A DNA stretch of 64,000 nt from the NCBI GenBank assembly GCA_047456305.1, contig CP179888.1, forward strand, positions 317,307 to 381,306. Direction: 5' to 3'. Shown piece after piece: positions 8,231 to 44,007 of this stretch. Every line of letters starts with the position of its first letter. The stretch's first letter is position 1. The notes under the pieces were generated by a model. It made no database searches. It was not told where the DNA came from and saw only the letters and a list, made by a program, of their open reading frames with translations. The translations under genes and the position numbers were made by a program. This stretch comes from Candidatus Nealsonbacteria bacterium. GTDB taxonomy: Bacteria > Patescibacteriota > Minisyncoccia > Minisyncoccales > CAZKCU01.

Positions 8231-11109
8231 ATTTTCCTAAAATTGAGAAAAAAATCCTAAAATTCTGGCAAGAAAACAAGATTTTCGAAAAACTTAAAAA
8301 GAAAAACCAAGGGAAAAAGCGCTGGTCGTTTTTGGACGGACCGATTACTGCTAACAATCCTATGGGAGTTCATCATGCCTGGGGAAGAACCTATAAAGAC
8401 CTTTTTCAGAGATACAAGGCAATGCAGGGTTTTGACCAGAGATTTCAAAACGGTTTTGATTGTCAGGGTTTGTGGGTAGAGGTAGAAGTTGAGAAGGAGC
8501 TTGGATTCAAGAATAAAAAAGATATAGAGAAATACGGCATAGAAAAATTTGTCAAAAAATGCAAAGAGAGAGTTGAGAAATATTCGAAAATTCAAACAGA
8601 ACAATCAATCCGGCTGGGTCAATGGATGGATTGGGGGAATTCTTATTACACAATGTCTGATGAGAATAACTATGCTATTTGGTATTTCCTAAAAAAATGC
8701 CACAAAGAGGGATTTTTATATAAAGGCAGAGATGTTGTTCCCTGGTGCCCGAGATGTGGGACAGCCATTTCCCAACACGAAATTTTAACAGAAGAGTATA
8801 AAGAATTGACTCACAAATCAATATTTTTCAAGTTGCCAGTCCAAAACCTAAAGAAAACTTATTTTCTTGTCTGGACAACTACTCCCTGGACATTATCAGG
8901 CAATGTTGCAATAGCTATTCATCCTGATTTTGATTATGTAAAAGTAAAAGATAAAAAAGGCGACATTTTTATCTTACTTAAAGAAAAATCTGATTTAATT
9001 GAAGCTGGAGAAATAATAGAAACATTCAAGGGCAAGAAATTAGAGGGATTTGAATACGAGGGGTTGTTTGACGAATTGCCATCTGTAAAAGAAACCTTAG
9101 GCAGCTACAAGCATTCTGTAATTCTATGGAAAGAAGTAACCAAAGAAGAAGGAACTGGTATTGTTCATGTGGCGCCCGGCTGTGGCCAGGAGGATTTTCA
9201 ATTAGCTAAAGAATTTAAACTGCCTGTTATTGACTTAACTAATGATGAAAGCAGCTACCTAAAGGGTTTTGGAGAGTTGAGTGACAAGTTTGTTGGCGGA
9301 GAAGAAGTAAGAGAATTGATTTTTGAAGATTTAAACCAAAAAGATAGAGTTTTTAAAATTGAAGGCTATAAACACCGCTATCCAATTTGCTGGCGCTGCC
9401 AGTCAGAATTGATTTTCCGCTTGGTTGATGAATGGTATATTTCAATGGCAAAGTTAAGAGAAAAACTGATGAAAATTGCCAAAAAAATAAAATGGATTCC
9501 TCCCTTTGGTCTGGACAGGGAATTGGATTGGTTAAAAAATATGCAAGATTGGTTGATTTCTAAAAAACGTTATTGGGGATTAGCTTTACCGATTTATGAA
9601 TGCCCAGACTGCGGAAACTTTGAGGTAATCGGTTCCAAAAAAGAATTAAAAGAAAAAGCGGTTAAGGATTGGCAAGAGTTTGAAGGTCATTCTCCTCACC
9701 GACCCTGGATAGATAAAGTAAAGATTAAATGTTCCAAATGTGGCAAAATAGTTTCTCGAATTCCTGATGTTGGTAATCCTTGGTTAGATGCCGGGATTGT
9801 GCCCTTCTCTACTCTAAAGTATTTTTCTGACCGGGAATTGTGGCAAAAATGGTTTCCGCCTGAATTTATTTGCGAATCTTTCCCGGGTCAATTCAAAAAT
9901 TGGTTTTATTCCCTTATTGTAATGAGTACTGTATTAGAGGAAGTTACTCCAGTGAAGACAATCTTTGGCTACGCCACAGTAGTCGATGAAAAGGGAGAAG
10001 AAATGCACAAATCCAAAGGAAATGTTATTTGGTTTGATGAGGCAGTTGAAAAAATAGGGGCTGATCTGATGCGTTGGATGTATGTTAGACAAAATCCAGT
10101 CTATAATCTAAGGTTTGGCTACAAGATTGCCAAAGAAACCCAAAGGAAACTTTTGACACTGTGGAATAGCTACACCTTTTTTGAGACGTATGTCTCAAAA
10201 AAGGAAATCCCAAATCCCAAATCCCAAATCCCAAAATCTAAAAATATCTTAGATAAGTGGATTAATTCAAGATTGAATAGGTTGATTACTCAAGTTACCC
10301 AAAGCTTAGATAATTTTGATGCTGCCAGAGCAAGTTCAGCCATTGAAGATTTCTTCATTAATGATTTATCTCTTTGGTATATAAGGAGATCAAGAAAGAG
10401 ATTTCAAAGACCAAGAAAGGAAGAAGAAAAAGATGAAGCAGCCGGTACTCTTTATTTTATTCTTTTGACTCTGGCAAAACTGATTGCTCCGATGATGCCA
10501 TTTCTGGCTGAAGAAATTTATTTGGGCTTGAAAACAAAAAACGAACCCCAGTCTATCCATCTTTGCGACTGGCCAAAATATTATGAAAAAGCAATTGACG
10601 ATAATTTAGAGGAGAAAATGAGAAAAGTTCGGGAGATTATAACTAAGGTTTTAGCTAAAAGAACTGAACTTGGAATTAAAGTGAGGCAGCCCCTACAGGG
10701 ATTAAGAATTACGAATTATAAATTACGAAGGGAGAAAGAATTACTGGAGTTGATTAAGGACGAGGTAAATGTAAAAGAAATTACTTTTGGCAAAACATTA
10801 AAATTGGATACAAAGATTAGCAAAGAGTTAAAAGAGGAGGGTCAGGTTCGAGAATTTATCCGACAAGTTCAGCAATTACGAAAAAACGCCAAACTCACCC
10901 CAAAAGATAAAATTATTATTTATTGCGAATGCCAGGAGAAACTGAAAAAAGTTTTACAAAAAAATAAAAAAGACATTTTAACAGAAACCAAGGCCAAAGA
11001 TTTTATCTTAGGAGGAAAAATTAAAAAGGCATTTAATGCGGAAAAGGAAATGCAAATCGGTCAACAAAAATTATGGTTAGGGATTAAAAAAAATCAAATA
11101 GTATGTTGA
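8221..11109 (+). CDS. ileS: isoleucine--tRNA ligase
   Basis: 962 aa; P..NNPMGVHH (HIGH), KMSKS variant (MHKSKGN), CP1 editing domain, zinc-ribbon cysteines. Confidence 0.95.
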   Translation: MSIDFPKIEKKILKFWQENKIFEKLKKKNQGKKRWSFLDGPITANNPMGVHHAWGRTYKDLFQRYKAMQGFDQRFQNGFDCQGLWVEVEVEKELGFKNKKDIEKYGIEKFVKKCKERVEKYSKIQTEQSIRLGQWMDWGNSYYTMSDENNYAIWYFLKKCHKEGFLYKGRDVVPWCPRCGTAISQHEILTEEYKELTHKSIFFKLPVQNLKKTYFLVWTTTPWTLSGNVAIAIHPDFDYVKVKDKKGDIFILLKEKSDLIEAGEIIETFKGKKLEGFEYEGLFDELPSVKETLGSYKHSVILWKEVTKEEGTGIVHVAPGCGQEDFQLAKEFKLPVIDLTNDESSYLKGFGELSDKFVGGEEVRELIFEDLNQKDRVFKIEGYKHRYPICWRCQSELIFRLVDEWYISMAKLREKLMKIAKKIKWIPPFGLDRELDWLKNMQDWLISKKRYWGLALPIYECPDCGNFEVIGSKKELKEKAVKDWQEFEGHSPHRPWIDKVKIKCSKCGKIVSRIPDVGNPWLDAGIVPFSTLKYFSDRELWQKWFPPEFICESFPGQFKNWFYSLIVMSTVLEEVTPVKTIFGYATVVDEKGEEMHKSKGNVIWFDEAVEKIGADLMRWMYVRQNPVYNLRFGYKIAKETQRKLLTLWNSYTFFETYVSKKEIPNPKSQIPKSKNILDKWINSRLNRLITQVTQSLDNFDAARASSAIEDFFINDLSLWYIRRSRKRFQRPRKEEEKDEAAGTLYFILLTLAKLIAPMMPFLAEEIYLGLKTKNEPQSIHLCDWPKYYEKAIDDNLEEKMRKVREIITKVLAKRTELGIKVRQPLQGLRITNYKLRREKELLELIKDEVNVKEITFGKTLKLDTKISKELKEEGQVREFIRQVQQLRKNAKLTPKDKIIIYCECQEKLKKVLQKNKKDILTETKAKDFILGGKIKKAFNAEKEMQIGQQKLWLGIKKNQIVC
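10206..10240. repeat. 7-nt periodic tandem array H2 inside ileS
   Basis: AATCCCA x4 (perfect) then AAATCTA; translated IPNPKSQIPKSK. Confidence 0.8.
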
Positions 11110-17668: not shown

Positions 17669-17727
17669 TAGGCGAAGAGAACTTCGTTCTCTTCTTCACC
17701 TTCGCTTTCGCTGCGCGAAAGCTCGGT
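17669..17727 (+). repeat. Family A repeat, copy A3 (forward, most complete)
   Basis: TAGGC-GAAGAGAAC TTC GTTCTCTTC-TTCACCTTCGC-TTTCGC TGC GCGAAA-GCTCGGT; ends 2 nt before ATG 17730. Confidence 0.8.
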
Positions 17728-22536: not shown

Positions 22537-25032
22537 ATGGTCAATTATAATCCTCAGAAAATAGAAAAAAAATGGCAGAGAGTTTGGGAGAAAATAGGAA
22601 TTTTTGAAGCGAAAGACTTTTCCAAAAAGGCAAAGAGCTATATTTTGGTTGAGTTTCCTTATCCATCTGGCGAAGGGCTTCATGTTGGGCATTGCCGACC
22701 TTATATTGCTTTGGATATAGTCAGCCGCAAAAGAAGAATGGAGGGTTTTAATGTTTTGTTTCCTATGGGCTGGGATGCTTTTGGATTGCCAACCGAAAAC
22801 TATGCTATTAAAACCGGGATTCATCCCCGAGAAGCTACCAGGAAAAACATCTCTTTTTTTAAGGGCCAGCAAAAAAGTATAGGTCTGTCTTTTGATTGGA
22901 GCCGCGAAATTAACACTACTGATCCGGACTACTATAAATGGACTCAATGGATATTTACACAGCTTTTTAAAAAAGGCTTAGCTTATAAAAGCAAAATGCC
23001 AATTAACTGGTGCCCGGCTTGTAAAATTGGTTTGGCTAATGAGGAAGTGGTTGATGGAAAATGCGAAAGGTGTGAGACAAAAGTTGTGAAAAAAGAAAAA
23101 GAACAGTGGATGCTGAAAATAACCAGGTATGCCGAAAGACTAATTCAGGATTTAGACAAAGTTGATTACCCGGAGAAAGTTAAGATTCTCCAGAAAGATT
23201 GGATAGGGAAATCAGAAGGCTGGGAAATAACTTTCAAGTTCAAAGATTCAAGTTCAAAGATTCAAGTATTCACTACTCGGGCAGATACCCTTTTTGGAGC
23301 TACTTATTTGGTGGTAGCTCCTGAGCATCCAATAATTCAAAATCTGAAATCTAAAATCCTAAATCTTAAATCTGTAGAGAAATATATTGAAGAATCCAAG
23401 AAAAAGATTGAGAGAGAAAGAATTAGTGAAATTAAAGAGAAAACTGGAATAGAAGTTAAAGGAATAAAAGCAGTCAACCCGGTCAATTTGAGACAAATTC
23501 CCATTTTTTTAGCAGATTATGTTTTGATGCACTATGGCACTGGGGCAATTATGGCTGTTCCAGCTCACGACCAAAGAGATTTTGATTTTGCCAGACAATA
23601 TAATTTGCCAATGATTGAGGTGATTAAACCTTTTAAAGAAAAAAAAGAATTACCAAAAGAAGCTGGAATAGTGGTTTCCAACGGTAGATTTAAAAAAGCT
23701 TATGAAGAAGAAGGATATTTAATTAATTCTGGAAGATTTAATGGAATAGGTTCAGAAATTGCCAAAGAAAGAATTGGTGAGTGGTTAGAAAGAAAAGGTT
23801 TAGCAAAAAAAACTGTCCATTATAAATTAAGAGATTGGATTTTTTCTCGGCAGCGTTATTGGGGAGAGCCAATTCCAATGATAAAGTGTGAGAGATGTGG
23901 TTGGTTGCCGGTAGCAGAAAAAGATTTACCGGTTAAACTTCCTCGAGTTAAAAAATATCAGCCGACTGAGACTGGCGAATCCCCATTAGCAGCAGTTGAA
24001 AATTGGGTAAATGTCAAATGCCCTAAATGTGAAGGTCCTGCCAAAAGAGAAACCGATGTTATGCCAAACTGGGCTGGTTCTAATTGGTATTATCTTCGCT
24101 ATTGTGATCCCAAAAACGATAAAAAATTAGCCAATCCAAAATTACTTAAATATTGGATGCTAGTAGACTGGTATAATGGAGGCATGGAACATACTACTTT
24201 GCATCTTTTGTATTCTCGTTTTATTTATAAATTTTTATGGGACATAGATGCCTTTCCAAAGTCTATTGGCCCTGAGCCATATAAGAAACGAACTTCTCAT
24301 GGAATGATTCTTGGCGAAGGAGGAATTAAAATGTCCAAATCTCGGGGCAACGTAATTAACCCTGAACAAATTATAAAGCAATACGGCGCTGATACTTTGA
24401 GAATTTACGAGATGTTTATAGGGCCCTTTGCTGAAACTATCGCTTGGGATACCAAAGGAGTAAAAGGAGCAAAGAGGTTTTTAGATAAAGTCTGGAAATT
24501 AGCTAATCAATTTTCCTATTCTCAGAAATCTAAAAGCTCTTCTGTTTTAAGAAAATTACTTCATCAGACTATTAAAAAAGTTTCAGAAGACATTGAATCT
24601 TTAAAGTTCAATACAGCTATTAGCTCGCTGATGGAGTTTTCTAATAATTGGCAAAAAGAGAAGGGAGGATTAGAAAAAGGAGATTTTAAAAATTTCCTAA
24701 AGATTTTTTCTCCTTTTGCTCCTCATATGGCAGAAGAACTTTGGCGAAAATTAAAAGTTAAAGGAGACCTTAAAGATTATAAGAAAAGAGATTCAATTTT
24801 CTTTCAGCCCTGGCCAAAATATGACCCAAAATTGATTAAAGAGAAAAAAATAACTTTAGTTATTCAGGTCAATGGTAAAATTCGTGATAAAATAGAAGTT
24901 GAAGCAGATATAAAAGAAGAAGAAGCAAAAGAACTTGCTTTGTCTCAAGAAAAAATCAAAAAATGGATAGAAGGAAAAGGGATAAAAAAAGTAATTTTTG
25001 TCCCCGGAAAACTTATAAATATAGTAATATAA
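22537..25032 (+). CDS. leuS: leucine--tRNA ligase
   Basis: 831 aa; FPYPSGEGLHVGH (HIGH), KMSKSRGN, CP1 editing domain. Confidence 0.95.
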   Translation: MVNYNPQKIEKKWQRVWEKIGIFEAKDFSKKAKSYILVEFPYPSGEGLHVGHCRPYIALDIVSRKRRMEGFNVLFPMGWDAFGLPTENYAIKTGIHPREATRKNISFFKGQQKSIGLSFDWSREINTTDPDYYKWTQWIFTQLFKKGLAYKSKMPINWCPACKIGLANEEVVDGKCERCETKVVKKEKEQWMLKITRYAERLIQDLDKVDYPEKVKILQKDWIGKSEGWEITFKFKDSSSKIQVFTTRADTLFGATYLVVAPEHPIIQNLKSKILNLKSVEKYIEESKKKIERERISEIKEKTGIEVKGIKAVNPVNLRQIPIFLADYVLMHYGTGAIMAVPAHDQRDFDFARQYNLPMIEVIKPFKEKKELPKEAGIVVSNGRFKKAYEEEGYLINSGRFNGIGSEIAKERIGEWLERKGLAKKTVHYKLRDWIFSRQRYWGEPIPMIKCERCGWLPVAEKDLPVKLPRVKKYQPTETGESPLAAVENWVNVKCPKCEGPAKRETDVMPNWAGSNWYYLRYCDPKNDKKLANPKLLKYWMLVDWYNGGMEHTTLHLLYSRFIYKFLWDIDAFPKSIGPEPYKKRTSHGMILGEGGIKMSKSRGNVINPEQIIKQYGADTLRIYEMFIGPFAETIAWDTKGVKGAKRFLDKVWKLANQFSYSQKSKSSSVLRKLLHQTIKKVSEDIESLKFNTAISSLMEFSNNWQKEKGGLEKGDFKNFLKIFSPFAPHMAEELWRKLKVKGDLKDYKKRDSIFFQPWPKYDPKLIKEKKITLVIQVNGKIRDKIEVEADIKEEEAKELALSQEKIKKWIEGKGIKKVIFVPGKLINIVI
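23233..23267. repeat. 7/14-nt periodic tandem array H6 inside leuS
   Basis: TTCAAGT TCAAAGA TTCAAGT TCAAAGA TTCAAGT; translated FKFKDSSSKIQV. Confidence 0.8.
23341..23375. repeat. 7-nt periodic tandem array H7 inside leuS
   Basis: AATCTGA AATCTAA AATCCTA AATCTTA AATCTGT; translated NLKSKILNLKSV. Confidence 0.8.
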
Positions 25033-25043
25033 TTAAAAATTGA

Positions 25044-25097
25044 TAGGCGATGAGGACTTCGTCCTCATCTTCACCTTCGCTTCTGCGGAAGCTCGGT
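25044..25097 (+). repeat. Family A repeat, copy A4 (forward)
   Basis: TAGGC-GATGAGGAC TTC GTCCTCATC-TTCACCTTCGC-TTC TGCG GAA-GCTCGGT; 27 nt before ATG 25125. Confidence 0.8.
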
Positions 25098-25124
25098 AAT
25101 TAATTAATATTGTAGTTTAAATAT

Positions 25125-26807
25125 ATGGGAGAAGTTCTCTTAAATAAATCTGGTAAAAAAAATATTTTATTAGGTAACGAAGCCATTTGTCGGGGAGCTT
25201 TGGAATCAGGGGTTCAATTTGTTTCTACTTATCCTGGAACCCCGGCTTCAGAAATTGGAAATACCTTTTTTAAACTTTCTCAAGCAGGAAAATATAAAGG
25301 TTATTTTGAGTTTTCTACCAATGAAAAAGTAGCTTTGGAAGCAGGAATTGGAGCTTCTTTTTCTGGTTTGAAAACTTTGGTGGCAATGAAAAATTTTGGG
25401 ACAAATGTTGCTTTAGATGCTTTAATTCCCTTTGTTTATACGGGAACCAAAGGCCCTACAGTAATAATATCTGCCGATGATCCTTCCTGCCACAGTTCAG
25501 CTCAATCGGAAGAGAATACCAGAGGGATTTCTTATTTAGCTCATATTCCAACTTTGGAACCTTCTGACCCTCAAGAATGCAAGGATTTTACAAAATTAGC
25601 TTTTAAAATTTCTGAAAAATTCAAAATTCCAGTAATGATAAGAACTACAACCAGAGTTGCTCACCAGCGAGCAATAGTAGAGCTCTCAAATATTCAACAC
25701 CCAAGGTTGGTAAAGGGTGGATTTGTTAAAGACCCTAAAAGATTCGTGACCATGCCTCCGAGAGTTTTAGAAATGAAAAAAGAGCTGCTTAAAAAAATCG
25801 AACAAATCAGAAAATTTTCCGAAAAAAACCCTATAAATTCAATCTCCCGAGCGGTAGCGAAAGGAAAAGAAGAAGATTTATCTTCTTCGCCCTATCGATT
25901 TACGAAATCAATAGATGGAGTGGGGGTGATTACTTCAGGGATTGCTTATTTATATGTAATGGAGGCATTAAATGAGCTTAATTTAAAATTGCCAGTTTTG
26001 AAGCTGGGATTTTTTTATCCCCTGCCGGAAAAGAAAATTCAAAATTTCATTAAAAAATTTAAAAAAGTTTTGATTGTTGAAGAATTAGAGCCATATTTAG
26101 AAAAAGAAATAGAAAGATTAGCAAAAGATGTAAACTCCGAATTAGAGGTAATTGGCAAAAAAATACTATCTGAAGTTGGTGAATTAAAACCCGAAAATGT
26201 AATCTTAGCCATCGCTAAAATTACTGGAAAAAACTACCAACTAAGAACTAAAAACTATCAACTAAAGACTAAGCGTTCTCCTCAGCTTTGTCCAGGTTGT
26301 CCTTATTGGTTAGTTTTTGGAGCAGTTAAAAAAGCGGTTGACTCAAAGAAGGTAATTTTTGGTGGAGACATTGGCTGCTATATGTTGGCTGGCCTGCCTC
26401 CTCATTTCCTTCAAGATTATCTTTCTTGTATGGGTTCTTCAATAGGAATTGCTCACGGGATAAAAAAAGTGACTGGTCAAAAATTAATTACTTTTATTGG
26501 TGACTCAACTTTTTTTCACGCCGGTATCCCAGCTTTGATTAATACAGTTTTCAATAAATCCAATCCTTTAATTATCGTAATGGAGAACCAAACCACTGCA
26601 ATGACCGGTCACCAGCCCCATCCGGGGGCGCCAGCCAAACCAGATGGAATTAAAATAGAAGAAATTGTTAAAGCTTGCGGTGTAAAGAATTTAAAAGTAA
26701 TTGACCCTGTCAATCAAAAAGACTTTATCGCTACCATTAAAGAATTTTTGAACAAAAAAGATGTATCAGTAATTATAGCTCGCCATCCATGCGTAAGGAT
26801 AAAATAG
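25125..26807 (+). CDS. iorA: indolepyruvate:ferredoxin oxidoreductase alpha subunit
   Basis: 560 aa; TPP-binding 2-oxoacid:ferredoxin oxidoreductase pattern, CPGCPY and GDIGCY motifs; followed by iorB. Confidence 0.85.
   Translation: MGEVLLNKSGKKNILLGNEAICRGALESGVQFVSTYPGTPASEIGNTFFKLSQAGKYKGYFEFSTNEKVALEAGIGASFSGLKTLVAMKNFGTNVALDALIPFVYTGTKGPTVIISADDPSCHSSAQSEENTRGISYLAHIPTLEPSDPQECKDFTKLAFKISEKFKIPVMIRTTTRVAHQRAIVELSNIQHPRLVKGGFVKDPKRFVTMPPRVLEMKKELLKKIEQIRKFSEKNPINSISRAVAKGKEEDLSSSPYRFTKSIDGVGVITSGIAYLYVMEALNELNLKLPVLKLGFFYPLPEKKIQNFIKKFKKVLIVEELEPYLEKEIERLAKDVNSELEVIGKKILSEVGELKPENVILAIAKITGKNYQLRTKNYQLKTKRSPQLCPGCPYWLVFGAVKKAVDSKKVIFGGDIGCYMLAGLPPHFLQDYLSCMGSSIGIAHGIKKVTGQKLITFIGDSTFFHAGIPALINTVFNKSNPLIIVMENQTTAMTGHQPHPGAPAKPDGIKIEEIVKACGVKNLKVIDPVNQKDFIATIKEFLNKKDVSVIIARHPCVRIK
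25846..25891 (-). repeat. Family A repeat, copy A5 (reverse), in frame inside iorA
   Basis: CCCGAGC-GGTA-GCGAAAGGAAAA-GAAGAAGAT TT ATCTTCTTC-GCC; translated SRAVAKGKEEDLSSS. Confidence 0.7.
25892..25916. repeat. REP-like palindrome, copy R1, in frame inside iorA
   Basis: CTATCGATTTACGAAATCAATAGAT, same sequence as the copies flanking the Y1 transposase at 62530 and 63060; translated PYRFTKSID. Confidence 0.8.
26232..26273. repeat. 7-nt (21-nt) periodic tandem array H8 inside iorA
   Basis: AACTACC AACTAAG AACTAAA AACTATC AACTAAA GACTAAG; translated KNYQLRTKNYQLKTK. Confidence 0.8.
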
Positions 26808-27376
26808 AAAAATTTAATATGTTAATTGTTGGCACTGGCGGTCAAGGGCAAATTACTCTTTTGCAGATTTTAGCCCAAGCTGCTTTATTCGAAGGTAAAG
26901 AGATTAGGACTTCAGAGCTTCATGGTTTGTCTCAAAGAGGGGGTTCGGTTGAAGTTCATATTAGGTTTGGCAAAAAAATCCATTCTCCTTTAATTCTTCT
27001 AGGAGAAGCAGATTTAATTTTAGGATTAGAAATGCAAGAAGCTTTAAAGGCTTACTCCTTTGCCAATTCGGGAACCACTTTTTTACTTAACAAAAAGATT
27101 ATTTCTATTTCTTTAGCAAAATCTTTATCTGAAAAAGAGATTTTAAAGTGCCTAAAAAAGATTAGCAAAAATATTATTTTAGTTCCGGCAGAGGAAATCT
27201 GCCAGGAAAAACTGGGAGCTAAAGTAGTCGCTGGAATTTATCTAATTAGTTTAGCCTCCTTTAAAAATTTAATTCCGATTAAACCAAATTCAATTTTAAA
27301 AGCAATTAATAAAATTATTCCGAAAAAATATCTGGAATTAAATAAAAAAGCTTTTAAGCTCGCTAAAACTTATTAA
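26789..27376 (+). CDS. iorB: indolepyruvate:ferredoxin oxidoreductase beta subunit
   Basis: 195 aa; GTGGQG motif; overlaps the iorA end. Confidence 0.75.
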   Translation: MRKDKIEKFNMLIVGTGGQGQITLLQILAQAALFEGKEIRTSELHGLSQRGGSVEVHIRFGKKIHSPLILLGEADLILGLEMQEALKAYSFANSGTTFLLNKKIISISLAKSLSEKEILKCLKKISKNIILVPAEEICQEKLGAKVVAGIYLISLASFKNLIPIKPNSILKAINKIIPKKYLELNKKAFKLAKTY

Positions 27377-31439: not shown

Positions 31440-32315
31440 ATGGCGAAAATCCTCGATGGTAAAAAATTATCTGAAGAAATTTTAGAGAATCTTAAAAAAG
31501 ATTACAACCCGTCCACCGCGTCCTCCCACCCGCCGAAGGGCGGGAGGGCCCCTATTAAAAAGAGGAAATTGAAGTTAAGATTGGCAGTAGTCCAAGTTGG
31601 AGAAAACCCAGTTTCTAAAATTTTTATCAATCAGAAAGAAAAAGCCTGTGAAAAAGTTGGCATTGATTTTAAGCTATTTAAATTTTCAACAAAAGCCAAA
31701 ACTCAAAAATTAAAAAAAGAAATTGGGGGAATTATTAAAAATTCAAGCAATTCAGGGGTAGTTATCCAATTACCTTTACCTAAAAAATTTTTGATAGAAG
31801 AATTTTTAAATTTAATTCCAGAAGAAAAAGATATTGATGTTCTATCTGAAAAAAGTTTAGGAAAATTTTATCAAGGGACATTGCCAATTCTCCCGCCAAC
31901 TGTCAGCGGGATTTTCCGTCTTTTAAAAAGTTATCAAATAAAAGTAAAAGGTAAAAACGTTGTTATTGTGGGTGCTGGAAGATTAATTGGTAACCCTTTA
32001 GTCCTCAGGCTTTTACAGCAAGAAGCAACCATTTCAGTTCTTAATGAATTTACAAAAGATACTCCTTCTTTTACAAAAAAAGCCGATATTTTAATTTCTG
32101 GAGTAGGCAAACCTGATTTAATTACCGGGAAGATGGTTAAAAAAGGAGTGGTGGTAATTGATGCCGGAACCTTTATTAAGAAAGGCAGGTTAGTGGGCGA
32201 TGTTAATTTTAAATCAGTTTCCAAAAAAGCAAGCTATATTACCCCGGTCCCTGGCGGTGTAGGACCAATGACCGTAGCCTGCCTAATTGAAAATTTGGTG
32301 AAACTTAATTTATGA
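31440..32315 (+). CDS. folD: bifunctional methylenetetrahydrofolate dehydrogenase/cyclohydrolase
   Basis: ILDGK start, VVQVGENPVS, VVIVGAGRLIGNP, PVPGGVGPMT motifs. Confidence 0.9.
   Translation: MAKILDGKKLSEEILENLKKDYNPSTASSHPPKGGRAPIKKRKLKLRLAVVQVGENPVSKIFINQKEKACEKVGIDFKLFKFSTKAKTQKLKKEIGGIIKNSSNSGVVIQLPLPKKFLIEEFLNLIPEEKDIDVLSEKSLGKFYQGTLPILPPTVSGIFRLLKSYQIKVKGKNVVIVGAGRLIGNPLVLRLLQQEATISVLNEFTKDTPSFTKKADILISGVGKPDLITGKMVKKGVVVIDAGTFIKKGRLVGDVNFKSVSKKASYITPVPGGVGPMTVACLIENLVKLNL
31507..31553 (+). repeat. GC-rich imperfect hairpin carried in frame inside folD
   Basis: CCCGTCCACCGCGTCCTCCCACCCGCC GAAG GGCGGGAGGGCCCC; translated NPSTASSHPPKGGRAP; composition contrasts sharply with the AT-rich flanks. 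Confidence 0.65.
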
Positions 32316-32884
32316 ATTTGGATTTCTTTTTATTTCAACAAATTAATAGTCTTGCTGGAAAATGGTTATGGCTCGATAGTTTGAGTATTTATTTTGCTGA
32401 ACATTTCGAGCATGTTTTATGGTTCATTCTTTTTTTGTTTTTACTGAAAAATTACAAACCGTTCGCTCAGCTCCCTGTAATCCCGCGATTAAAGAAAAAA
32501 TACTGGCCGATGATAATTCAGGCTTTTGGGGCAGCAATTTTAGCAAGATTAGTTGTTGTTAATTTTATTCGCTGGCTTTGGCCAAGACCCAGACCATTTA
32601 TTGAAAACACTGTTAATTTGCTCCTATCTCATAAGGCAGCTTCTTTTCCTTCTGGTCATGCTGCCTTTTATTTTGCTATATCTACGGTTGTTTATTTTTA
32701 CAATAAAAAAGCTGGCATCGGATTTTTTGTTGCCAGTTTTTTAATTTCTATTTCCCGAGTGATTTGTGGAATTCACTGGCCATCTGATATTTTGGTTGGA
32801 GCTTTGATTGGAATTTTTTCTGCTTGGTTGATTATTCTTTTTTTTCAGCGATTTTTCTCAACCTCATCGAAACAATCACTATAA
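32312..32884 (+). CDS. PAP2 family phosphatase (undecaprenyl-diphosphatase-like)
   Basis: 190 aa, about 5 TM segments; PSGH and SRV..G.H..SD PAP2 motifs. Confidence 0.7.
   Translation: MNLDFFLFQQINSLAGKWLWLDSLSIYFAEHFEHVLWFILFLFLLKNYKPFAQLPVIPRLKKKYWPMIIQAFGAAILARLVVVNFIRWLWPRPRPFIENTVNLLLSHKAASFPSGHAAFYFAISTVVYFYNKKAGIGFFVASFLISISRVICGIHWPSDILVGALIGIFSAWLIILFFQRFFSTSSKQSL
32457..32494 (+). repeat. Family B repeat, copy B5, in frame inside PAP2 gene
   Basis: AACCGTTCGCTCAGCTCCCTGTAATCCCGCGATTAAAG aligns with B1 apart from an internal deletion; translated KPFAQLPVIPRLK. Confidence 0.65.
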
Positions 32885-33791: not shown

Positions 33792-35906
33792 TTATTTTGC
33801 CATATTTTTCTCGAAATTGCAATCTTTGTCGGAACACTTAATTTTCCTCCCTTTTTCTACCAAAAGTGAGCCGCATTTTGGGCATTTTTTTCCTGTTGGC
33901 TTATCCCATAAGGCAAAATCACATTTTGGCCATTGATTGCAGCCATAAAAGATTTTTTTCTTTTTAGTTCTTTTTTCAACTATCTCACCCTTTTTACATT
34001 TTGGGCATTTAATTCCCAATTTCTTTTTTTCAAAAGGTTCAGTATATTTACATTTAGGAAAGCGAGAGCAGCCATAGAATTTTCCGAATTTCCCCAGCCG
34101 AATTAAAAGTTGGGCTTTGCATTCTGGACAGATTTTTTCGGTTTTTTCAGTTAAAACCTTTTTTGAAACCTCCTGATATTTTTGTTTTAGGTTTTTTTCG
34201 AAAGGATTGTAAAAATCTCTTATAACCTGAACCCATTTTTCTTTCCCTTGGGCAATTTTATCTAAATCCTCTTCCATTAGGGCGGTAAATTTAATATCAA
34301 CAATTTTTGGGAAGTGTTCTACCAAAATATCGTTCACTACTGTTCCAATTTCAGTTGGTTGAAAGCGCTTCTCTGTATTTTTCTCAATATAATTTCTTTC
34401 TTGAACTGTAGATAAAATGGGGGCATAAGTTGAGGGTCTGCCAATACCATTTTCTTCCAAAGCCTTAATTAGAGTAGCTTCACTGTATCGAGGAGGAGGC
34501 TGAGTAAAGTGCTGGGAAGGAATTAATTTTATAAGTTCTAAAATTTCATTTATCTCTAAAAGTGGCAATTCAGTCTCCTCATATCTTATTGGATATATTT
34601 TTAGAAATCCATCAAACTTCAAGACCTGGCCAGTAGCTTTAAAAGTGTAATTTTTAGCGCCAATATCAATAGTCGTTGAGTCAAGAACAGCTTGACTCAT
34701 CTGACAAGCAATAAATCTTCGCCAGATAAGATCGTAAAGCCGAAACTGCCTCTTGTCTAATTTTGCTTTAATTTTTAAATTTTCAGGAGTTTTCTCAGGA
34801 TAGGTCGGCCTTATTGCCTCATGAGCTTCCTGGGCCCTTTTAATTTTTGTTTTATATCTTCTTAAAAAACCAGCCCAATATTCTTTGCCATAACTCTCAA
34901 TGATAAATTTTCTGGCAGCAAATAAAGATAAATCAGAGAGATTCAGAGAATCGGTTCGATGGTAACTCGTGTATCCCCTTTCATAAAGTTGTTGTGCCAC
35001 TTGCATTGTTAGCCTTGCCGGCCAGTGAAACCTTTTCCAGGTTTCCTGTTGTAAGGTGCTGGTGCTAAATGGCGGTAGGGGATTCCTTTTCACTTCCTTT
35101 CTTTCAATATTGATTACTTTGTATACACAAGCTCGGCGAAGCCGAGCGCAGCGTGAAGATGAAGCGTTAGCTTCATCGACTTCAGCTTTTTCTAAATCTT
35201 TAACAATTTTATCTGCTTCTTTTTTAATTTTAATTCCAAGTTTTGGAATAGTTTCCCCATCTCTTTTAATTAAAATAGCTTCAAGTTGCGGAGAACCGTT
35301 CTCTGTAATTTTCTTAAGTTGGGCGGCAATTGTCCAGTATTCTTGGGGTACAAAATTTTTAATTTCTCTTTCCCTTTCTACAACCAGACGAACTGCTACT
35401 GACTGAACTCTTCCAGCTGACAGGCGTCGAGCCACCTTTTTCCATAAAAAAGGGGATAATTTATAACCAACAATTCTATCTAAAATTCTTCTCGTTTGTT
35501 GAGCATCAACCAAATTTAAATCAATTTTTCTTGGATTCTTTAATGCCTCCTCAATAGCAGATTTTGTAATCTCATGAAAAACAATTCTTTGATAAGGTTT
35601 TTGGCCATTTAGATTTAAAATCTTGGTCAAATGCCAGGCAATACTTTCGCCCTCTCTGTCCGGATCGGTACTTACTATTACTAAATCTGCTTTCTCCACC
35701 TCTTTTTTTAAAACCTGAATTATCTTTCTTGATTTGGGAGGAATAACATATTTAGGTTTAAAGTTATGTTCAACATCAATCCCAAATTCACCCTTAGGCA
35801 AATCTCTGATGTGACCATAGGAAGAAAGAACCCGATATTTAGGGCCTAAAAATCCTTGAAGTGTTTTTGATTTCGTTGGTGACTCAACTACTACGATTAA
35901 TTGCAT
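33792..35906 (-). CDS. topA: DNA topoisomerase I
   Basis: 704 aa; Toprim (VVVESPTKSKT), active-site region YTSYHRTDS, C-terminal C4 zinc-ribbon repeats. Confidence 0.95.
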   Translation of the reverse strand: MQLIVVVESPTKSKTLQGFLGPKYRVLSSYGHIRDLPKGEFGIDVEHNFKPKYVIPPKSRKIIQVLKKEVEKADLVIVSTDPDREGESIAWHLTKILNLNGQKPYQRIVFHEITKSAIEEALKNPRKIDLNLVDAQQTRRILDRIVGYKLSPFLWKKVARRLSAGRVQSVAVRLVVEREREIKNFVPQEYWTIAAQLKKITENGSPQLEAILIKRDGETIPKLGIKIKKEADKIVKDLEKAEVDEANASSSRCARLRRACVYKVINIERKEVKRNPLPPFSTSTLQQETWKRFHWPARLTMQVAQQLYERGYTSYHRTDSLNLSDLSLFAARKFIIESYGKEYWAGFLRRYKTKIKRAQEAHEAIRPTYPEKTPENLKIKAKLDKRQFRLYDLIWRRFIACQMSQAVLDSTTIDIGAKNYTFKATGQVLKFDGFLKIYPIRYEETELPLLEINEILELIKLIPSQHFTQPPPRYSEATLIKALEENGIGRPSTYAPILSTVQERNYIEKNTEKRFQPTEIGTVVNDILVEHFPKIVDIKFTALMEEDLDKIAQGKEKWVQVIRDFYNPFEKNLKQKYQEVSKKVLTEKTEKICPECKAQLLIRLGKFGKFYGCSRFPKCKYTEPFEKKKLGIKCPKCKKGEIVEKRTKKKKIFYGCNQWPKCDFALWDKPTGKKCPKCGSLLVEKGRKIKCSDKDCNFEKNMAK
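35129..35180 (-). repeat. Family A repeat, copy A6, in frame inside topA (forward relative to the mRNA)
   Basis: + strand AAGCTCGG CGAAG CCGAGC-GCA-GCGTGAA-GATGAAGC GTTA GCTTCATC-GAC; translated (minus strand) EVDEANASSSRCARLRRAC. Confidence 0.7.
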
Positions 35907-36765: not shown

Positions 36766-38721
36766 TCATTTCGCCTTTAATTTTTCTATACTTTCCGATA
36801 GTATCTGGCAATAAAGATTGAGACCGATTGAGTTTATGTTTCCTGATTGCTCTTTGCCCAAAATATTACCTCCTCCTCTCATTTCTAAATCTTTTAAAGC
36901 AATTCGATAACCTGAACCTAATTCCTCAGCTTCTTTTAAGGCCTGAAGTCTTTCTTCTGCCAGGGGAGAAAGTCTTTGAGGATATAAAAAGTAAGAGAAG
37001 GCCTGAATATGGGAACGGCCGATTCTTCCCCGGATTTGATAAGCTTCTGCCAGACCCAACCTTGTTGAATCAGCAACAATTAAAGTATTCACATTGGGCA
37101 AATCAAGGCCATTTTCAATAATAGTAGTCGCGACTAAAACATCAATTTTTTTATTCTGGAAATCTTCCATTACTTTGACTAATTCCTTTTCTTTTAATCT
37201 TCCATGAGCTATTCCAAATTTTGCTTTTGGAGATAAGTTTTCTAAAAACCTTTTTACCATTTCAATTGTTTCTATTCTATTATGCAAATAATAAATTTGG
37301 CCGCCTCTTTCAATTTCAGTTTCAATTGCTTCTTTAATTATTTTATCCTTGAAAGACAAAATAAAAGTTTTAACTGGCAATCTGCCAACCGGTGGAGTTT
37401 GAATCAGGCTAATATCTTTTAAGGAAGAGAGGGCCATATATAAAGTTCGGGGGATAGGGGTTGCAGAAAGGCTTAAAATATCTAAAGAGGCCCTTATTTT
37501 CTTTAATTTTTCTTTTTGCCTAACTCCAAATCTTTGTTCGTCATCAATAACCAATAGTCCCAAATTTTTAAATTCGACATCAGAAGACAAAATTCGGTGA
37601 GTGCCCACCGCTATATCAACTTTCCCATTTTTTAAATCATTAATTATTTCTCTCTGCTTTTTTTTGGATTGTAACCTGGATAGCATTGCTATTTTAACTG
37701 GTAAATTTTTTAATCGTCCCTTAAAATTTTGAAAATGTTGAGAAGCTAAAATAGTAGTTGGACAAATCATGGCTGCCTGATAGCCAGAATTAACTACCTT
37801 TATCATTGCCCTCAAAGCTACCTCCGTCTTTCCAAATCCAACATCGCCGCAAACAATTCTATCCATTGGTTCTGGCTTCTCTAAATCCTTTTTTATATCT
37901 TCAATTGCCTGGGATTGATCCGGAGTCTCTTCAAATTGGAAAGAAGAATTTATTTGGAGATTTATCTCATCTTCTGATAAATAAGGAGGACGAGTGACAA
38001 TTTCTCTAATAGCCGCAACCTCTAAAAGTTCTCTGGCTAATTTTTCAACTTCTTCCTTGATTTTTCTTTTTGTTCTCTGCCAGAGAGGAGAGCCGAGCCG
38101 GGAAATTTTTGGTTTAATAAAACCAATGTAGCGAGATAATTTTCTTTCTAATCCTACTGGAACATACAATTTATCTCCCTGAGCATATTCGAGTTGGTAA
38201 TATTGTTGATTGTTAATTGCTAATTGTCGATTGTATATTCCTATGCCGTGGTCTAAATGAACTAAATAATCTTTGGGCTTTAATCCCTTTAAATCGGAAA
38301 ATAGTTTTTGGGATTTTAATTTCTTTTTTAAAATCTCTTTTGATTTCTTCTCATCTTCAACCCTTATATCTAAAGATTCAATATTCTCAATTTGATTTCC
38401 AAAAAATTCAAAACGAACAGCTAAATTTAGATTTACTGGAAAAACATCAATAATTCCTCCTCTCTGGGAAAATTCTCCGGGTTCTGAAACTCTCAAAACT
38501 TTTTCATATCCCATCTCGTCCAATTTTCTTAAAAATTGAGAAAAATTGTAAATTTGATTTCTTTCTAAATATAAAGTATTGTCTTCAAAAAAAGATTGAG
38601 TTTTCTTGGCTTCTAAAATTTTTCTTAGATTTTCCTCAAACCAAAAAACAGGCTTTTCTAAAAAATAGGGGGTAAGCCCAACAATTAAGACTTTTTCTAA
38701 TCTTAATCTTGACAAATCCAT
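36766..38721 (-). CDS. mfd: transcription-repair coupling factor, compact form
   Basis: 651 aa; UvrB-like GEFSQRGGIIDVFP, RNAP-interaction region LVHLDHGIGIY, helicase motifs GDVGFGKTEVA, DDEQRFG, GRIGRS. Confidence 0.85.
   Translation of the reverse strand: MDLSRLRLEKVLIVGLTPYFLEKPVFWFEENLRKILEAKKTQSFFEDNTLYLERNQIYNFSQFLRKLDEMGYEKVLRVSEPGEFSQRGGIIDVFPVNLNLAVRFEFFGNQIENIESLDIRVEDEKKSKEILKKKLKSQKLFSDLKGLKPKDYLVHLDHGIGIYNRQLAINNQQYYQLEYAQGDKLYVPVGLERKLSRYIGFIKPKISRLGSPLWQRTKRKIKEEVEKLARELLEVAAIREIVTRPPYLSEDEINLQINSSFQFEETPDQSQAIEDIKKDLEKPEPMDRIVCGDVGFGKTEVALRAMIKVVNSGYQAAMICPTTILASQHFQNFKGRLKNLPVKIAMLSRLQSKKKQREIINDLKNGKVDIAVGTHRILSSDVEFKNLGLLVIDDEQRFGVRQKEKLKKIRASLDILSLSATPIPRTLYMALSSLKDISLIQTPPVGRLPVKTFILSFKDKIIKEAIETEIERGGQIYYLHNRIETIEMVKRFLENLSPKAKFGIAHGRLKEKELVKVMEDFQNKKIDVLVATTIIENGLDLPNVNTLIVADSTRLGLAEAYQIRGRIGRSHIQAFSYFLYPQRLSPLAEERLQALKEAEELGSGYRIALKDLEMRGGGNILGKEQSGNINSIGLNLYCQILSESIEKLKAK
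38200..38234. repeat. 7-nt periodic tandem array H9 inside mfd
   Basis: ATATTGT TGATTGT TAATTGC TAATTGT CGATTGT; translated (minus strand) NRQLAINNQQY. Confidence 0.75.
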
Positions 38722-39355: not shown

Positions 39356-39906
39356 GCTTTTCCTAAACCTGATTTTAAAGAAAGCTCAATCGCCTCAACC
39401 GTTTTTTTAATCACTTCTTTAACTATCTTTTCTTCTTCTTTGTTAAATTTTTGAAGAACAAATTTTTCGGGATTTTTAGGTTTGCCAAACTTAGGTTGAA
39501 TGCCAATTCTAAACCTAACAAAATTTTTAGTTTCAATTTCTTTAATTATTGATTTCACTCCTTTGTGGCCAGCCGAACCACGATTTTTGACAATTCGGAT
39601 TTTACCCAGGGGCAAATCAATGTCGTCGTGAATTACTAAAACATTTGACATTTGACACTTAACACTTAACACTACTTTTTTTACTGCTTGGCCAGAGAGA
39701 TTCATAAAAGTAAGCGGTTTTGCGAGTAAAACTTTTTGGCTGTTAATCTCACCTTTACTAATTTCAGCCTGTAATTTTTTTATATTTTTCCAATCCGAAA
39801 ATTTGTCAATTGTTAATTGTAAATTGTCAATTGTCATAAAGCCAAGATTGTGGCGAGTTTTTTGAAATTTTTCTCCGGGATTACCCAGACCAAGGATAAT
39901 TCTCAT
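39316..39906 (-). CDS. pth: peptidyl-tRNA hydrolase
   Basis: LGLGNPG..TRHNLGF, MNLSG, GSAGHKG motifs. Confidence 0.9.
   Translation of the reverse strand: MRIILGLGNPGEKFQKTRHNLGFMTIDNLQLTIDKFSDWKNIKKLQAEISKGEINSQKVLLAKPLTFMNLSGQAVKKVVLSVKCQMSNVLVIHDDIDLPLGKIRIVKNRGSAGHKGVKSIIKEIETKNFVRFRIGIQPKFGKPKNPEKFVLQKFNKEEEKIVKEVIKKTVEAIELSLKSGLGKAQSTYNICARPST
39642..39676. repeat. 7-nt periodic tandem array H10 inside pth
   Basis: CATTTGA CATTTGA CACTTAA CACTTAA CACTACT; translated (minus strand) VVLSVKCQMSN. Confidence 0.8.
39800..39834. repeat. 7-nt periodic tandem array H11 inside pth
   Basis: AATTTGT CAATTGT TAATTGT AAATTGT CAATTGT; translated (minus strand) TIDNLQLTIDKF. Confidence 0.8.
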
Positions 39907-39966: not shown

Positions 39967-40009
39967 CATCTTGTTGCAAAAATAAAAAATTTAACTTATA
40001 CTTAAAAAA

Positions 40010-40065
40010 GGCAGAGAGGACTTCGTCCTCTTCTTAACCTTCGCCATTATAAATAAAAGCTCGGT
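40010..40065 (+). repeat. Family A repeat, copy A7 (forward)
   Basis: AAGGC-AGAGAGGAC TTC GTCCTCTTC-TTAACCTTCGC-CATTATAAATAAAA-GCTCGGT; ends 2 nt before ATG 40068; hairpin 2 is replaced by AT-rich sequence. Confidence 0.75.
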
Positions 40066-42309: not shown

Positions 42310-42334
42310 AGAAGAGATTTATCTCTTCGCCTAG
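42288..42334 (-). repeat. Family A repeat, copy A8 (reverse)
   Basis: CCGAGC-CGCAGG-CGAAAGATGAA-GAAGAGAT TT ATCTCTTC-GCCTAG; supplies the last codons (SRAAGER) and the stop of the HIT gene; 13 nt before the rpsU ATG. Confidence 0.7.
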
Positions 42335-43949: not shown

Positions 43950-43960
43950 GAACCATAAAG

Positions 43961-44007
43961 AGAACCGTTCACTTCGCTCACTGTAATTTGCTCCGCAAAT
44001 TAAAACT
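43961..44007 (+). repeat. Family B repeat, copy B2
   Basis: AGAACCGTTCACTTCGCTCACTGTAATTTGC TCC GCAAATTAAAACT, ends at ATG 44008. Confidence 0.7.

Follow-up and report, generated by a model that had tools for sequence, protein, structure and literature searches.

Apparent nesting of two unrelated palindromic repeats in frame in the iorA gene of a Candidatus Nealsonbacteria bacterium

The iorA gene of a Candidatus Nealsonbacteria bacterium contains a 75-base segment that consists of two mobile hairpin repeats, family A and REP1, which are unrelated to each other and lie one within the other. An earlier reading based on the letters alone (the sequence-only reading) described the segment as a composite, in which a family A copy is followed by a REP palindrome, and proposed that the junction links family A to a REP/RAYT system. 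The question is whether the two repeats form such a unit or reached the gene independently. We consider it highly probable that the whole segment is explained by two unrelated, small, non-autonomous palindromic elements, nested and in frame in the interdomain linker of IorA.

The iorA segment and its alleles

The window, which is the whole 64-kb stretch of DNA analysed, carries iorA at 25125–26807 (+), followed by iorB (26789–27376). The intact host ORF encodes the alpha subunit of indolepyruvate:ferredoxin oxidoreductase (560 aa). This protein contains the Pfam domains POR_N, PFOR_II, and TPP_enzyme_C, is 100% identical to a Candidatus Nealsonbacteria protein, and scores 599.9 bits with the NCBIfam model IOR_alpha, which is below the cut-off of 650.9. 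As the sequence-only reading stated, the reading frame stays open across both repeats (...NSISRAVAKGKEEDLSSSPYRFTKSIDGVGVITSG), and the insert is located directly N-terminal of the conserved GVITSG strand.

The 7-mer TCAATCT (25839–25845, +) conforms to the motif seen at the left flank (target) of family A. Its last four bases, ATCT (25842–25845), belong to the 5' arm of REP1 as its outer end and are severed from the remainder by the family A insert. The family A element extends from 25846 to 25893 (+; 48 nt, 16 codons) in frame and belongs to the subtype with a short hairpin 1; a CT dinucleotide leaves its register ambiguous, and a leftward shift of up to 2 nt is possible. In the codon-aligned register (25845–25892), it encodes SRAVAKGKEEDLSSSP, and its hairpin 2 is GAAGAAGAT-TT-ATCTTCTTC. 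The rest of REP1 (25894–25916, +) comprises the 5' arm remainder ATCGATTT and the 3' arm AAATCAATAGAT, joined by the loop ACG, and encodes YRFTKSID together with its flanking bases. Translation of the segment would yield peptides such as AVAKGKEEDLSSSPYR. Both components of the proposed composite are present; however, the 48-nt family A copy does not precede the palindrome but splits it, and REP1 in iorA is at least 27 nt in length (12+3+12 nt, 9 codons). Taken as a whole, the 101-nt region was no more stable in folding than shuffled sequences (z −1.3 as RNA and −1.4 as DNA), although two local hairpins were predicted within it.

The alignment of IorA orthologues revealed that the 24 inserted residues are common to just 2 of the 38 other homologues and, thus, represent an insertion rather than a conserved part of the enzyme. 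The linker varied in length and sequence across the 39 homologues. In the AF2 model (mean pLDDT 65.8), residues 231–262 had pLDDT values below 50 and were positioned just before the strand at 266–271; PDB relatives of IorA were too distant for the insert to be placed on a solved structure.

REP1 was present by itself at the same iorA site in three related loci (L001, L005, and L150). In L001 and L005, the empty-site allele reads AAT TCA ATC|TAT CGA TTT xCG AAA TCR ATA GAT, and the palindrome is intact with 12-bp arms. Exactly 48 nt are added at the bar in the window, L004, and L002. Family A begins directly after TCAATCT, 4 nt into the 5' arm of REP1, and the one clean filled/empty pair exhibited no target duplication beyond the 2-nt CT ambiguity. 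A second in-frame family A site was found in IorA of L150, and the orthologous sites were empty. A comparison of these alleles indicates that the iorA segment is a nested insertion, with family A inside an arm of REP1, and not a fused composite. An ancestral A+REP1 state followed by the precise excision of A may have produced the same pattern, from which the order of events cannot be proven.

The 5' part of the window iorA was 97–100% identical to those of L003 and L001, yet the three carry different linker alleles. L004 and L147 were 94–99% identical over most of iorA and 73–88% identical around the linker, where L004 matched L001, the window, and L002 at 91–97%. One NCBI MAG and two JGI metagenomes, assembled independently, all contained the A+REP1 junction. 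Since the three A+REP1 alleles have idiosyncratic features in common, they appear to derive from one event that was spread by recombination. The identity patterns along the gene show linker alleles that evidently pass between Nealsonbacteria lineages through homologous recombination.

REP1, its transposase, and family A

REP1 has the form ATCTATCGATTT-NNN-AAATCRATAGAT. Its consensus, CAATCTATTGATTT-NNN-AAATCAATAGATTG, has ATAG/CTAT, and the GTAG or CGTC tag of the Di Nocera superfamilies is absent from it. The 25-nt palindrome CTATCGATTTACGAAATCAATAGAT occurred exactly at 25892–25916 and 62530–62554 and with 2 mismatches at 63060–63084; these three copies in the 64-kb window compare with a shuffle expectation of 0.00 matches. 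The palindrome is not private to the window. Seventeen stretches in GTDB species-representative genomes matched REP1 (the source genome is not among these representatives, and its REP1 copies were counted within the 64-kb window). These included 10 exact-pattern copies from 7 contigs of the MAG CSMAG_2049, and six other MAGs also carried copies. REP1 was also found in frame within TopA (L026) and a 369-aa ORF (L012). As a short imperfect palindrome with many dispersed copies per genome, REP1 is a REP-type repeat.

The sequence-only reading regarded the palindrome as bracketing a Y1 transposase gene. The copies are present, but they bracket the gene only loosely. One (62530–62554, +) follows the stop codon of a Y1 transposase relic at a distance of 5 nt, an arrangement also found in L007, L008, and L009. 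The other (63060–63084, +) lies in frame inside the ancestral transposase ORF (QSIDFVNQYI) and is the breakpoint of the 5' gene part lost in this genome; homology between the window and L007 begins there. The relic (62562–63059, −) still contains HFH as its HUH motif and GRYK as the region of the catalytic Tyr, while approximately 56 N-terminal residues are gone. A full-length homologue, P0122 (231 aa; no PDB relative found by sequence), contains ...LQSIDFVNRYI..., and residues 49–231 were covered in a tblastn search against the window. The relic scored 37.9 with Pfam Y1_Tnp (threshold 23), over positions 38–119 of 121 only. With NCBIfam REP_Tyr_transpos (NF047646), the relic and P0122 scored 43 and 41.9 bits, respectively, against a cut-off of 80. 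Therefore, the transposase is RAYT-like and not an equivalog. The possibility that the 62530 copy bears a 2-nt footprint of excision (CT) was rejected; the arm simply ends there.

Y1/HUH genes flanked by REP1, which is the arrangement of a REPtron, were found in L007, L008, L009, L013, L019, and the window. In L007, L013, and L019, REP1 was present on both sides of the Y1 genes as well as within them, and L013 and L019 contained REPs inserted into REPs. Other Y1 homologues were bracketed by their own palindrome types, namely, type 4 in L123 and another type in L030, in which it was also intragenic. Because REP1 copies bracket the RAYT-like Y1/HUH gene and lie inside it, REP1 is most likely mobilised by this cognate transposase acting on single-stranded hairpin DNA. 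Present-day mobility of REP1 in this genome is doubtful because the window gene is a truncated relic.

Family A is a two-hairpin element of approximately 54 nt (about 48–58 nt) that is far commoner than REP1. Its profile runs in the order of CCGAGC, hairpin 1, GCGAAGGTGAAGA, hairpin 2, and TCGCC. The model CM R1, whose training set comprised 57 metagenome copies from outside the window, matched the iorA copy at 25847–25893 (+) over its full length (model positions 1–55; 32.5 bits, E 7.9e-6), which places this copy in family A by both sequence and structure. Together with the exact repeats of the palindrome, this match bears out the earlier view that both parts of the segment are dispersed repeats. 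In the 57 copies, 93.6% of cells were paired versus 80% in shuffles, and double changes were observed in 141 cells versus 47.6, a level reached in 0 of 500 shuffles. Mismatch searches using the iorA sequence did not detect another copy; such simple searches fail because family A varies by indels and compensatory changes, and a CM is needed. No Rfam family matched the repeats (the only match in the window was a tRNA), and the viral contigs searched contained neither family A nor REP1. The antisense strand of family A was also considered as a UUCG tetraloop, a reading rejected in view of its variable loops of 3 nt.

The left flanks of 114 family A copies gave the motif TCRNNNA, with T in 108, C/T in 83/29, A/G in 87/20, and the final A in 110. 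This motif resembles the 3' end of the element itself, TCGCCTA. Tandem arrays have the junction TCGCCTA|CCGAGC, and those in L037 and L069 have periods of 44 and 54 nt. The left 7-mer (6–7/7) was repeated on the right, 2 nt after TCGCC, in 11 of 100 copies versus 4 expected. This signal is weak and confined to a subset of copies, approximately 10%, which could reflect a 7-bp target duplication instead of a duplication-free insertion.

Within the window, iorA is the only place at which the two repeat types join, as the sequence-only reading noted. The A+REP1 segment might therefore be a true composite, or family A might be a component of the REP1/RAYT system that is mobilised by the same Y1 transposase. 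Family A was inserted in the REP1 arm exactly after the CT dinucleotide at the foot of the hairpin, and the E. coli RAYT has been reported to cleave at CT beside REP hairpins. Both elements are hairpin-based and lack an obvious long target duplication, and the A+REP1 patch occurs in three lineages. However, the three alleles represent one event spread by recombination, REP1 stands alone at the same site in three orthologues, and A is a discrete 48-nt addition, all of which speak against a composite unit. None of the other 103 family A copies examined adjoined REP1, and only two 9-nt half-site chance matches were found. REP1 occurred once outside the window in approximately 0.8 Mb of A-bearing metagenome loci, against three copies in the window, and family A is much more widespread (at least 120 matching metagenome stretches versus 17 REP1 stretches in genomes). 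Y1 genes had REP-type palindromes at their flanks and never A hairpins (0 of 10 Y1 genes in approximately 1.1 Mb of loci, a limited sample), and no transposase tied to family A was found among the loci examined. We consider a composite or a shared RAYT system unlikely. Since family A practically never adjoins REP1 at other loci, the case for a link between family A and the REP/RAYT system from this junction is weak. The co-location is attributable to the fit of TCAATCT at the foot of REP1 to the target motif of family A and to the tolerance of the linker.

Persistence of palindromes at the linker

A palindrome was found at the IorA interdomain linker in all 11 orthologues examined at the DNA level. 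This pattern would be accounted for if the iorA mRNA or DNA contained a cis-acting structure under selection, for example, for interdomain translational pausing, mRNA processing, or stability; the repeats would then have been recruited or retained and would not be neutral passengers. The sequences at this common position are unrelated, and the stems are perfect in genes that are otherwise approximately 80% identical in protein. Furthermore, L002 retained hairpin 2 via a compensatory G-C to A-T change at the price of two amino-acid replacements. However, the 11 linker palindromes fall into five unrelated types, each of which was also found at other loci, some of them bracketing Y1 transposases. 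Therefore, they are dispersed repeats and not an iorA-specific motif. Hairpin covariation is a property of family A at all of its sites, the region as a whole folds no better than shuffles, and persistence is explained by a tolerant linker together with a landing-pad effect, such as that seen for the REPs within REPs of L013 and L019. A selected structure at this position is very improbable.

An assembly or binning artefact, in which repeat-induced mis-joining placed the repeats in iorA, is extremely unlikely: short dispersed repeats can confuse metagenome assemblers and the source is a MAG, but the same in-frame junctions occur in three independent assemblies with lineage-specific substitutions, iorA is collinear on both flanks, and either element, at 48 or 27 nt, fits within a single read.

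According to the preferred reading of two independent elements, REP1 (27 nt, 9 codons) would have entered the variable linker before the first strand of domain II, as in the orthologues that carry it alone. Family A (48 nt, 16 codons, two hairpins) would then have inserted 4 nt inside the 5' arm of REP1, after TCAATCT. Homologous recombination passed the whole patch between Nealsonbacteria lineages, placing the A+REP1 allele on different iorA backbones. Both elements are presumably transcribed and translated as a tolerated, hydrophilic surface loop of 24–25 residues, to judge from the integrity of the ORF, orientation bias, and conservation. Selection may have acted as a filter, with survivors being in frame, stop-free, and in the hydrophilic orientation. 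Family A probably inserts independently and site-specifically 3' of T-C-R-N-N-N-A, following the "peel and paste" logic of the IS200/IS605 type. Its landing in REP1 may reflect a REP1 foot that served as a target within a tolerant linker, rather than one shared system.

Relationship to known repeats and occurrence of family A

The Rickettsia palindromic elements (RPEs) and the protein-coding palindromic repeats of Wolbachia were described by Ogata et al. (as cited in PMC3733652). Similar to the iorA elements, RPEs are short palindromic selfish repeats that a reduced-genome bacterium carries, in frame, within many of its housekeeping ORFs; they are translated as extra loops that are compatible with protein function and absent from orthologues. 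In-frame insertions in conserved ORFs, with orthologues lacking the insert, were found in the present study in IorA, LeuS, TopA, GyrA, several tRNA synthetases, and PBP2. RPE-1 is approximately 100–150 nt. The lineage examined here differs (CPR/Patescibacteria), its units are shorter (27 nt and about 48–58 nt), and the likeness is one of description. Further differences from RPEs are the nesting of two families, the cognate Y1 transposase of one of them, and, in family A, a strict left-flank motif and copies exactly 3 nt upstream of start codons. The putatively translated, nested repeats in the core gene iorA resemble the protein-coding repeats of Rickettsia; the literature that we searched on Patescibacteria and Nealsonbacteria contained no relevant description of REPs, RAYTs, or repeats in frame for this group.

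REPtrons (REP + RAYT), including intragenic REPs, were described by Di Nocera et al. (2013; PMC3733652). Similar to their REPs, REP1 is a dispersed, imperfect palindrome of 25–33 nt with G-T/C-A wobble positions, clusters around a Y1/HUH gene, and occasionally occurs in ORFs at flexible linkers. However, REP1 lacks the GTAG/CGTC tag and is AT-rich, with 12–14-bp arms and a 3-nt loop; the transposase, at 42–43 bits, remains under the NCBIfam RAYT cut-off of 80; the transposase gene has its cognate REP within its own reading frame; and the flanking copies in the window are in direct orientation.

Family A shares with IS200/IS605 elements and PATEs hairpins near both ends without terminal inverted repeats, insertion 3' of a short flank motif resembling its own 3' end, the lack of a duplication at the one available empty site, and precise presence/absence alleles. 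In contrast to PATEs, it is far smaller (approximately 54 nt), no autonomous partner with matching ends was found, the motif is gapped (TCR-NNN-A) and not a contiguous 4–5-mer, and a minority of copies look like 7-bp duplications. BIMEs and REPINs also have two adjacent hairpins with a conserved linker between them and form tandem arrays. However, the hairpins of family A are not inverted copies of one REP, and, thus, do not form the long hairpin of a REPIN, and no RAYT is associated with them. Neither repeat is a classical MITE: the ends of family A (CCGAGC.../...TCGCCTA) are not inverted repeats and have no consistent TSD, and REP1 is a single palindrome.

The filled, half-filled, and differently filled iorA alleles on nearly identical backbones offer a clean, dated example of small selfish hairpin repeats lengthening an essential enzyme in a reduced-genome CPR bacterium. 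A single protein linker can serve repeatedly as the landing site of palindromes from at least five families, and repeat patches spread via homologous recombination. Such insertions enlarge the "core" proteins of CPR MAGs, add to their diversity, and may lead alignments, phylogenies, and annotation astray. They are also ready-made substrates for testing RAYT-type target choice. A broader possibility, which we regard as doubtful, is that family A is an undescribed, ultra-small (approximately 54 nt), site-specific single-strand-DNA element of CPR, which recognises a TCR-NNN-A site similar to its own 3' end in the manner of a minimal IS200/IS605-type substrate, forming translated loops in dozens of essential genes and fixed 3 nt upstream of start codons. 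It would coexist with RAYT-like transposases that carry an in-frame cognate REP, and the iorA linker would be a persistent landing pad at which successive elements insert into or replace each other.

In these organisms, this very small two-hairpin element with its strict flank motif is common in aminoacyl-tRNA synthetases, gyrase, topoisomerase, and enzymes of the cell wall. In ORFs of at least 200 aa, 21 family A copies were in the sense and 2 in the antisense orientation. LeuS of L005 contains two in-frame copies, whereas the window site is empty; other in-frame hosts on related contigs included GyrA, PheT, PBP2, ArgS, and ValS-, LysS-, and ProS-type synthetases. Twenty copies lay exactly 3 nt from an ATG, and "CAT" was frequent in the left flank. 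The interpretation of family A as a 5'-UTR/start-codon element was rejected: the conserved bases of the flank are T-C-R and A, not the T of CAT, and, thus, the association with start codons is secondary.

Seven further copies were found in the window. The copy at 25044–25096 (−; CM 69.9 bits) occupies the leuS-iorA spacer in the orientation opposite to that in iorA, and this spacer is missing in L001, L002, L005, L006, and L148. Another (17669–17726, −; 75.9 bits) fills the spacer between two genes and ends 3 nt before the ATG at 17730, and that at 40008–40064 (−; 54.1 bits) ends 3 nt before the ATG at 40068. The copy at 57108–57161 (+; 70.9 bits) overlaps the stop codon of the gene at 56400–57134, while one of the short subtype seen in iorA (42288–42333, +; 38 bits) overlaps the end of the ORF at 41983–42309. 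A degenerate copy (4551–4603, +; 39.3 bits) is intergenic. The claim that a further core enzyme carries these elements in frame holds for topA (33792–35906, −), in addition to the enzymes on related contigs. TopA of L026 lacks family A, whereas a divergent copy in the window topA (35130–35182, +; 26.1 bits, E 3.4e-4) is antisense and in frame, and encodes VDEANASSSRCARLRRAC.

Family A and REP1 in iorA

The iorA gene (25125-26807; ORF of 560 aa, followed by iorB) encodes a protein with the Pfam domains POR_N, PFOR_II, and TPP_enzyme_C. It matches an NCBI Candidatus Nealsonbacteria MAG protein at 100% identity and scored 599.9 bits against the NCBIfam model IOR_alpha, slightly below the model's cut-off. 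The sequence-only reading had described a family A copy running directly into the REP-type palindrome REP1, and the sequence was exactly as described. The 25-nt palindrome recurs at 62530 (exact) and 63060 (two mismatches), while none was expected by chance. Among 39 aligned IorA homologues, only P0002 and P0006 had the 24 inserted residues in common with the window. Four proteins (P0004, P0005, P0018, and P0094) carry the palindrome-encoded (Y/N)RF(T/P)KSI alone, and the remaining homologues have other linkers.

However, the two repeats had been read as a fused composite, which the DNA of other assemblies did not bear out. L001 and L005 carry the palindrome alone, as AAT TCA ATC TAT CGA TTT xCG AAA TCR ATA GAT, intact with 12-bp arms that are perfect in L005. 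In the window, L004, and L002, exactly 48 nt (TCC CGA GCG ... TCG CCC) separate ATC from TAT; we place this discrete insert at 25846-25893, and the sole ambiguity in its register is CT. Based on this comparison, family A sits 4 nt into the 5' arm of a REP that was probably there first, although family A may instead have been precisely excised from the REP in the lineages that now lack it. The three filled alleles go back to one single event, since all of them have a two-base-pair hairpin 1, an extra C, and GCCC as common idiosyncrasies. Hairpin 2 of L002 is preserved through a compensatory G-C to A-T change, at the cost of D to N and S to F.

The insert is located between POR_N and PFOR_II, directly N-terminal of the strand 266-271; pLDDT is below 50 at residues 231-262 in a mediocre AF2 model (mean pLDDT 65.8), and the relatives in the PDB are too remote to place it more precisely. 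The ORF is intact with the insert, and the A+REP1 allele is maintained in three lineages. We infer that the insert is translated as a tolerated loop. The 101-nt region overall folded no better than shuffles (z about -1.3), and hairpin 2 of family A and the REP hairpin were predicted within it.

The IorA linker is a hotspot for palindromes. A palindrome was present at this position in all 11 orthologues examined at the DNA level, and five unrelated types were represented: REP1, GTCTGTCGGTAT-CTG-ATACCGACAGAC, ACAGAGAC-CAG-GTCTCTAT, GCAGAGG-ACGGG-CCTCTGT, and TTGGTCAAGAA-CAG-TTCTTGACTAA. Every one of the five recurs at unrelated loci, and a Y1 gene lies between copies of the GCAGAGG type. The distribution of A+REP1 disagrees with the IorA protein tree. 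In a sliding-window comparison, L004 and L147 were 94-99% identical over most of iorA and 73-88% around the linker, where L004 instead matched L001, the window, and L002. The 5' part of iorA in the window is 97-100% identical to those of L003 and L001, yet each of the three has a different linker allele. This mosaic explains the distribution off the protein tree, the linker patch being exchanged through homologous recombination. The difference between alleles with and without family A comes close to a polymorphism at the population level.

Both intragenic REPs and, in Rickettsia and Wolbachia, in-frame RPEs are known systems (PMC3733652), and we found nothing comparable reported in the literature on Patescibacteria; therefore, we regard the present case as a variant of a known phenomenon. 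The new features are the nesting of two repeat families, one linker as a recurrent landing pad, a very small element, strict in its flank motif and widespread across essential genes, and a RAYT-like gene family with its cognate REP in frame.

Family A as a separate element

In the orientation of the iorA copy, family A comprises CCGAGC, hairpin 1, GCGAAGGTGAAGA(A/T)GAG..., hairpin 2, and ...TCGCCTA. Further copies in the window are located at 4551, 17669, 25044, 35130, 40008, 42288, and 57108, and scanning metagenomes for the long-hairpin subtype yielded at least 120 stretches. Covariation is strong in both hairpins: across 57 aligned copies, 93.6% of cells were paired (80% in shuffles) and 141 cells carried double changes (47.6 in shuffles), which none of 500 shuffles equaled, while pairing in slid controls was at most 51%. 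A covariance model built without any window sequence detected the iorA copy (32.5 bits, E 7.9e-6). No Rfam family matched these elements.

Among the matches listed, 114 non-redundant copies gave the left flank T(108) C/T(83/29) A/G(87/20) N N N A(110), abutting CCGAGC, and the right end TCGCC; the next base is T in 76 of 110 copies. Head-to-tail arrays without spacers (periods of 54 and 44 nt) were noted in L069 (2697-2860), L037 (minus strand, about 2112-2237), and L121. The junction in tandem arrays is TCGCCTA|CCGAGC, which makes the flank motif similar to family A's own 3' end. Since the empty iorA allele already has TCAATCT, the flank of the filled copy (TCAATCT|), we read the motif as a probable target preference. 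Testing whether the target is duplicated gave a weak signal in a subset only (11 copies with 6-7/7 matches; 4 expected).

Outside iorA, family A and REP1 are practically never adjacent. Of the 103 other copies examined, none adjoined REP1, with two 9-nt half-site matches attributable to chance; 860 kb of A-bearing sequence contained four REP1 copies, three of them in the window, and no A-type flanks were present at the Y1 genes found. The physical link between family A and the RAYT system, as previously proposed, comes down to co-location.

REP1 and the Y1 transposase genes

The Y1 transposase ORF of the window (62559-63128, minus strand) covers positions 38-119 only of Pfam Y1_Tnp, and its match to the NCBIfam RAYT model was under the cut-off. 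P0122, a 231-aa homologue in three other assemblies, is identical across the common part. The gene in those assemblies has REP1 15 nt 5' of the ATG and 5 nt past the stop codon, and a third REP1 in frame, encoding QSIDFVNRYI. Since the homology of the window copy ends exactly at the internal REP, this copy is a 5'-truncated relic. More distant Y1 homologues are flanked on both sides by palindromes of other types, each homologue having its own; L030 likewise carries the cognate palindrome within the gene, at the equivalent position. RAYT-like Y1 genes with an internal copy of their flanking palindrome were observed at 62559-63128 and in L007 (4957-5727), L013, L019, and L030 (5604-6597). The internal copy is in frame, with the N-terminal part on one side and the HUH strand on the other, and tracks the flanking type (REP1 in L007, L013, and L019; CTCCACAGGG-type in L030).

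A scan of GTDB species-representative genomes, which did not include the source genome, detected REP1 in 17 stretches, confirming its recurrence beyond the window; 10 copies were on seven contigs of one MAG. Among these stretches were REPs nested within REPs, as well as copies lying in frame in TopA and in one other ORF. REP1 within the loop of another REP1, or followed by duplicated 3' arms, was noted in L013 (870-970), L019 (6230-6290), L022 (4426-4470), and L025 (255-300), which indicates that the hairpin may target itself. In the REP1 copy 3' of the Y1 gene, near-identical strains have the 3-nt loop inverted (gene-sense), CGT in the window (62541-62543) and ACG in L007 (5716-5718), with unchanged arms, as if the hairpin loop had flipped. 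In contrast to the REPs of PMC3733652, REP1 lacks a GTAG or CGTC tag.

Host genes of family A and other repeats

Among the matches listed, 21 family A copies in ORFs of at least 200 aa were in the purine-rich sense orientation and two were antisense, while 20 of the 114 metagenome copies ended exactly 3 nt ahead of an opposite-strand start codon. At 17669-17726 and 40008-40064, antisense copies span the entire spacer and end exactly 3 nt 5' of the next ATG, so that a conventional Shine-Dalgarno sequence would not fit outside the hairpin. The proteins in which family A lies include GyrA, a ValS-type synthetase, PheT (two copies), PBP2, ArgS, and LysS-type and ProS-type synthetases, and the encoded peptides have the form NRASEGSEGEDEN.VLIA or TELP..EAKVKKRT.SSSP.

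LeuS of L005 contains two copies, whereas window LeuS has none at that place. L150 carries a GC-rich copy in frame at a second IorA site (10867-10923; SRAPRQRGEARDESKALSD) besides a degenerate REP1 in the linker of this more distant relative (P0094). In window topA (33792-35906, minus strand), a divergent antisense copy (35130-35182) encodes VDEANASSSRCARLRRAC in frame, whereas TopA of L026 lacks family A and has an in-frame REP1 (LSISEINR) at a different site. These presence/absence differences in LeuS, IorA, and TopA are independent polymorphisms.

The empty LeuS loop is built from short tandem units containing TCA, TTCAAG/TTCAAAGA in the window (23230-23274) and (ATCAAAA)x4 in L002; the same loop in L005 (1-160) holds the two family A copies. 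These units could be target-motif arrays or element footprints. At the leuS end and leuS-iorA spacer (25009-25124), TAATTAATTAATATTGTAGTTTAAATAT (25097-25124) directly follows the spacer copy and resembles the leuS 3' end and spacer of L001, of which the window's own leuS end (25009-25032) is a synonymous variant. This arrangement suggests that the leuS end around the element is recombinant or duplicated. In L004 and L003, leuS extends into the element by three codons.

A second repeat family (AACCGTTCGCTTCGCTCACTGTAAT) is present chiefly at gene ends (7606-7638, 32450-32482, 43956-43988, and 46627-46659), with one copy inside the ORF 32312-32884. AT-rich short tandem motifs (TTGTTAATTGCTAATTGTCGATTGT-like) occur at 38188-38234 and 39788-39834, 1.6 kb apart.
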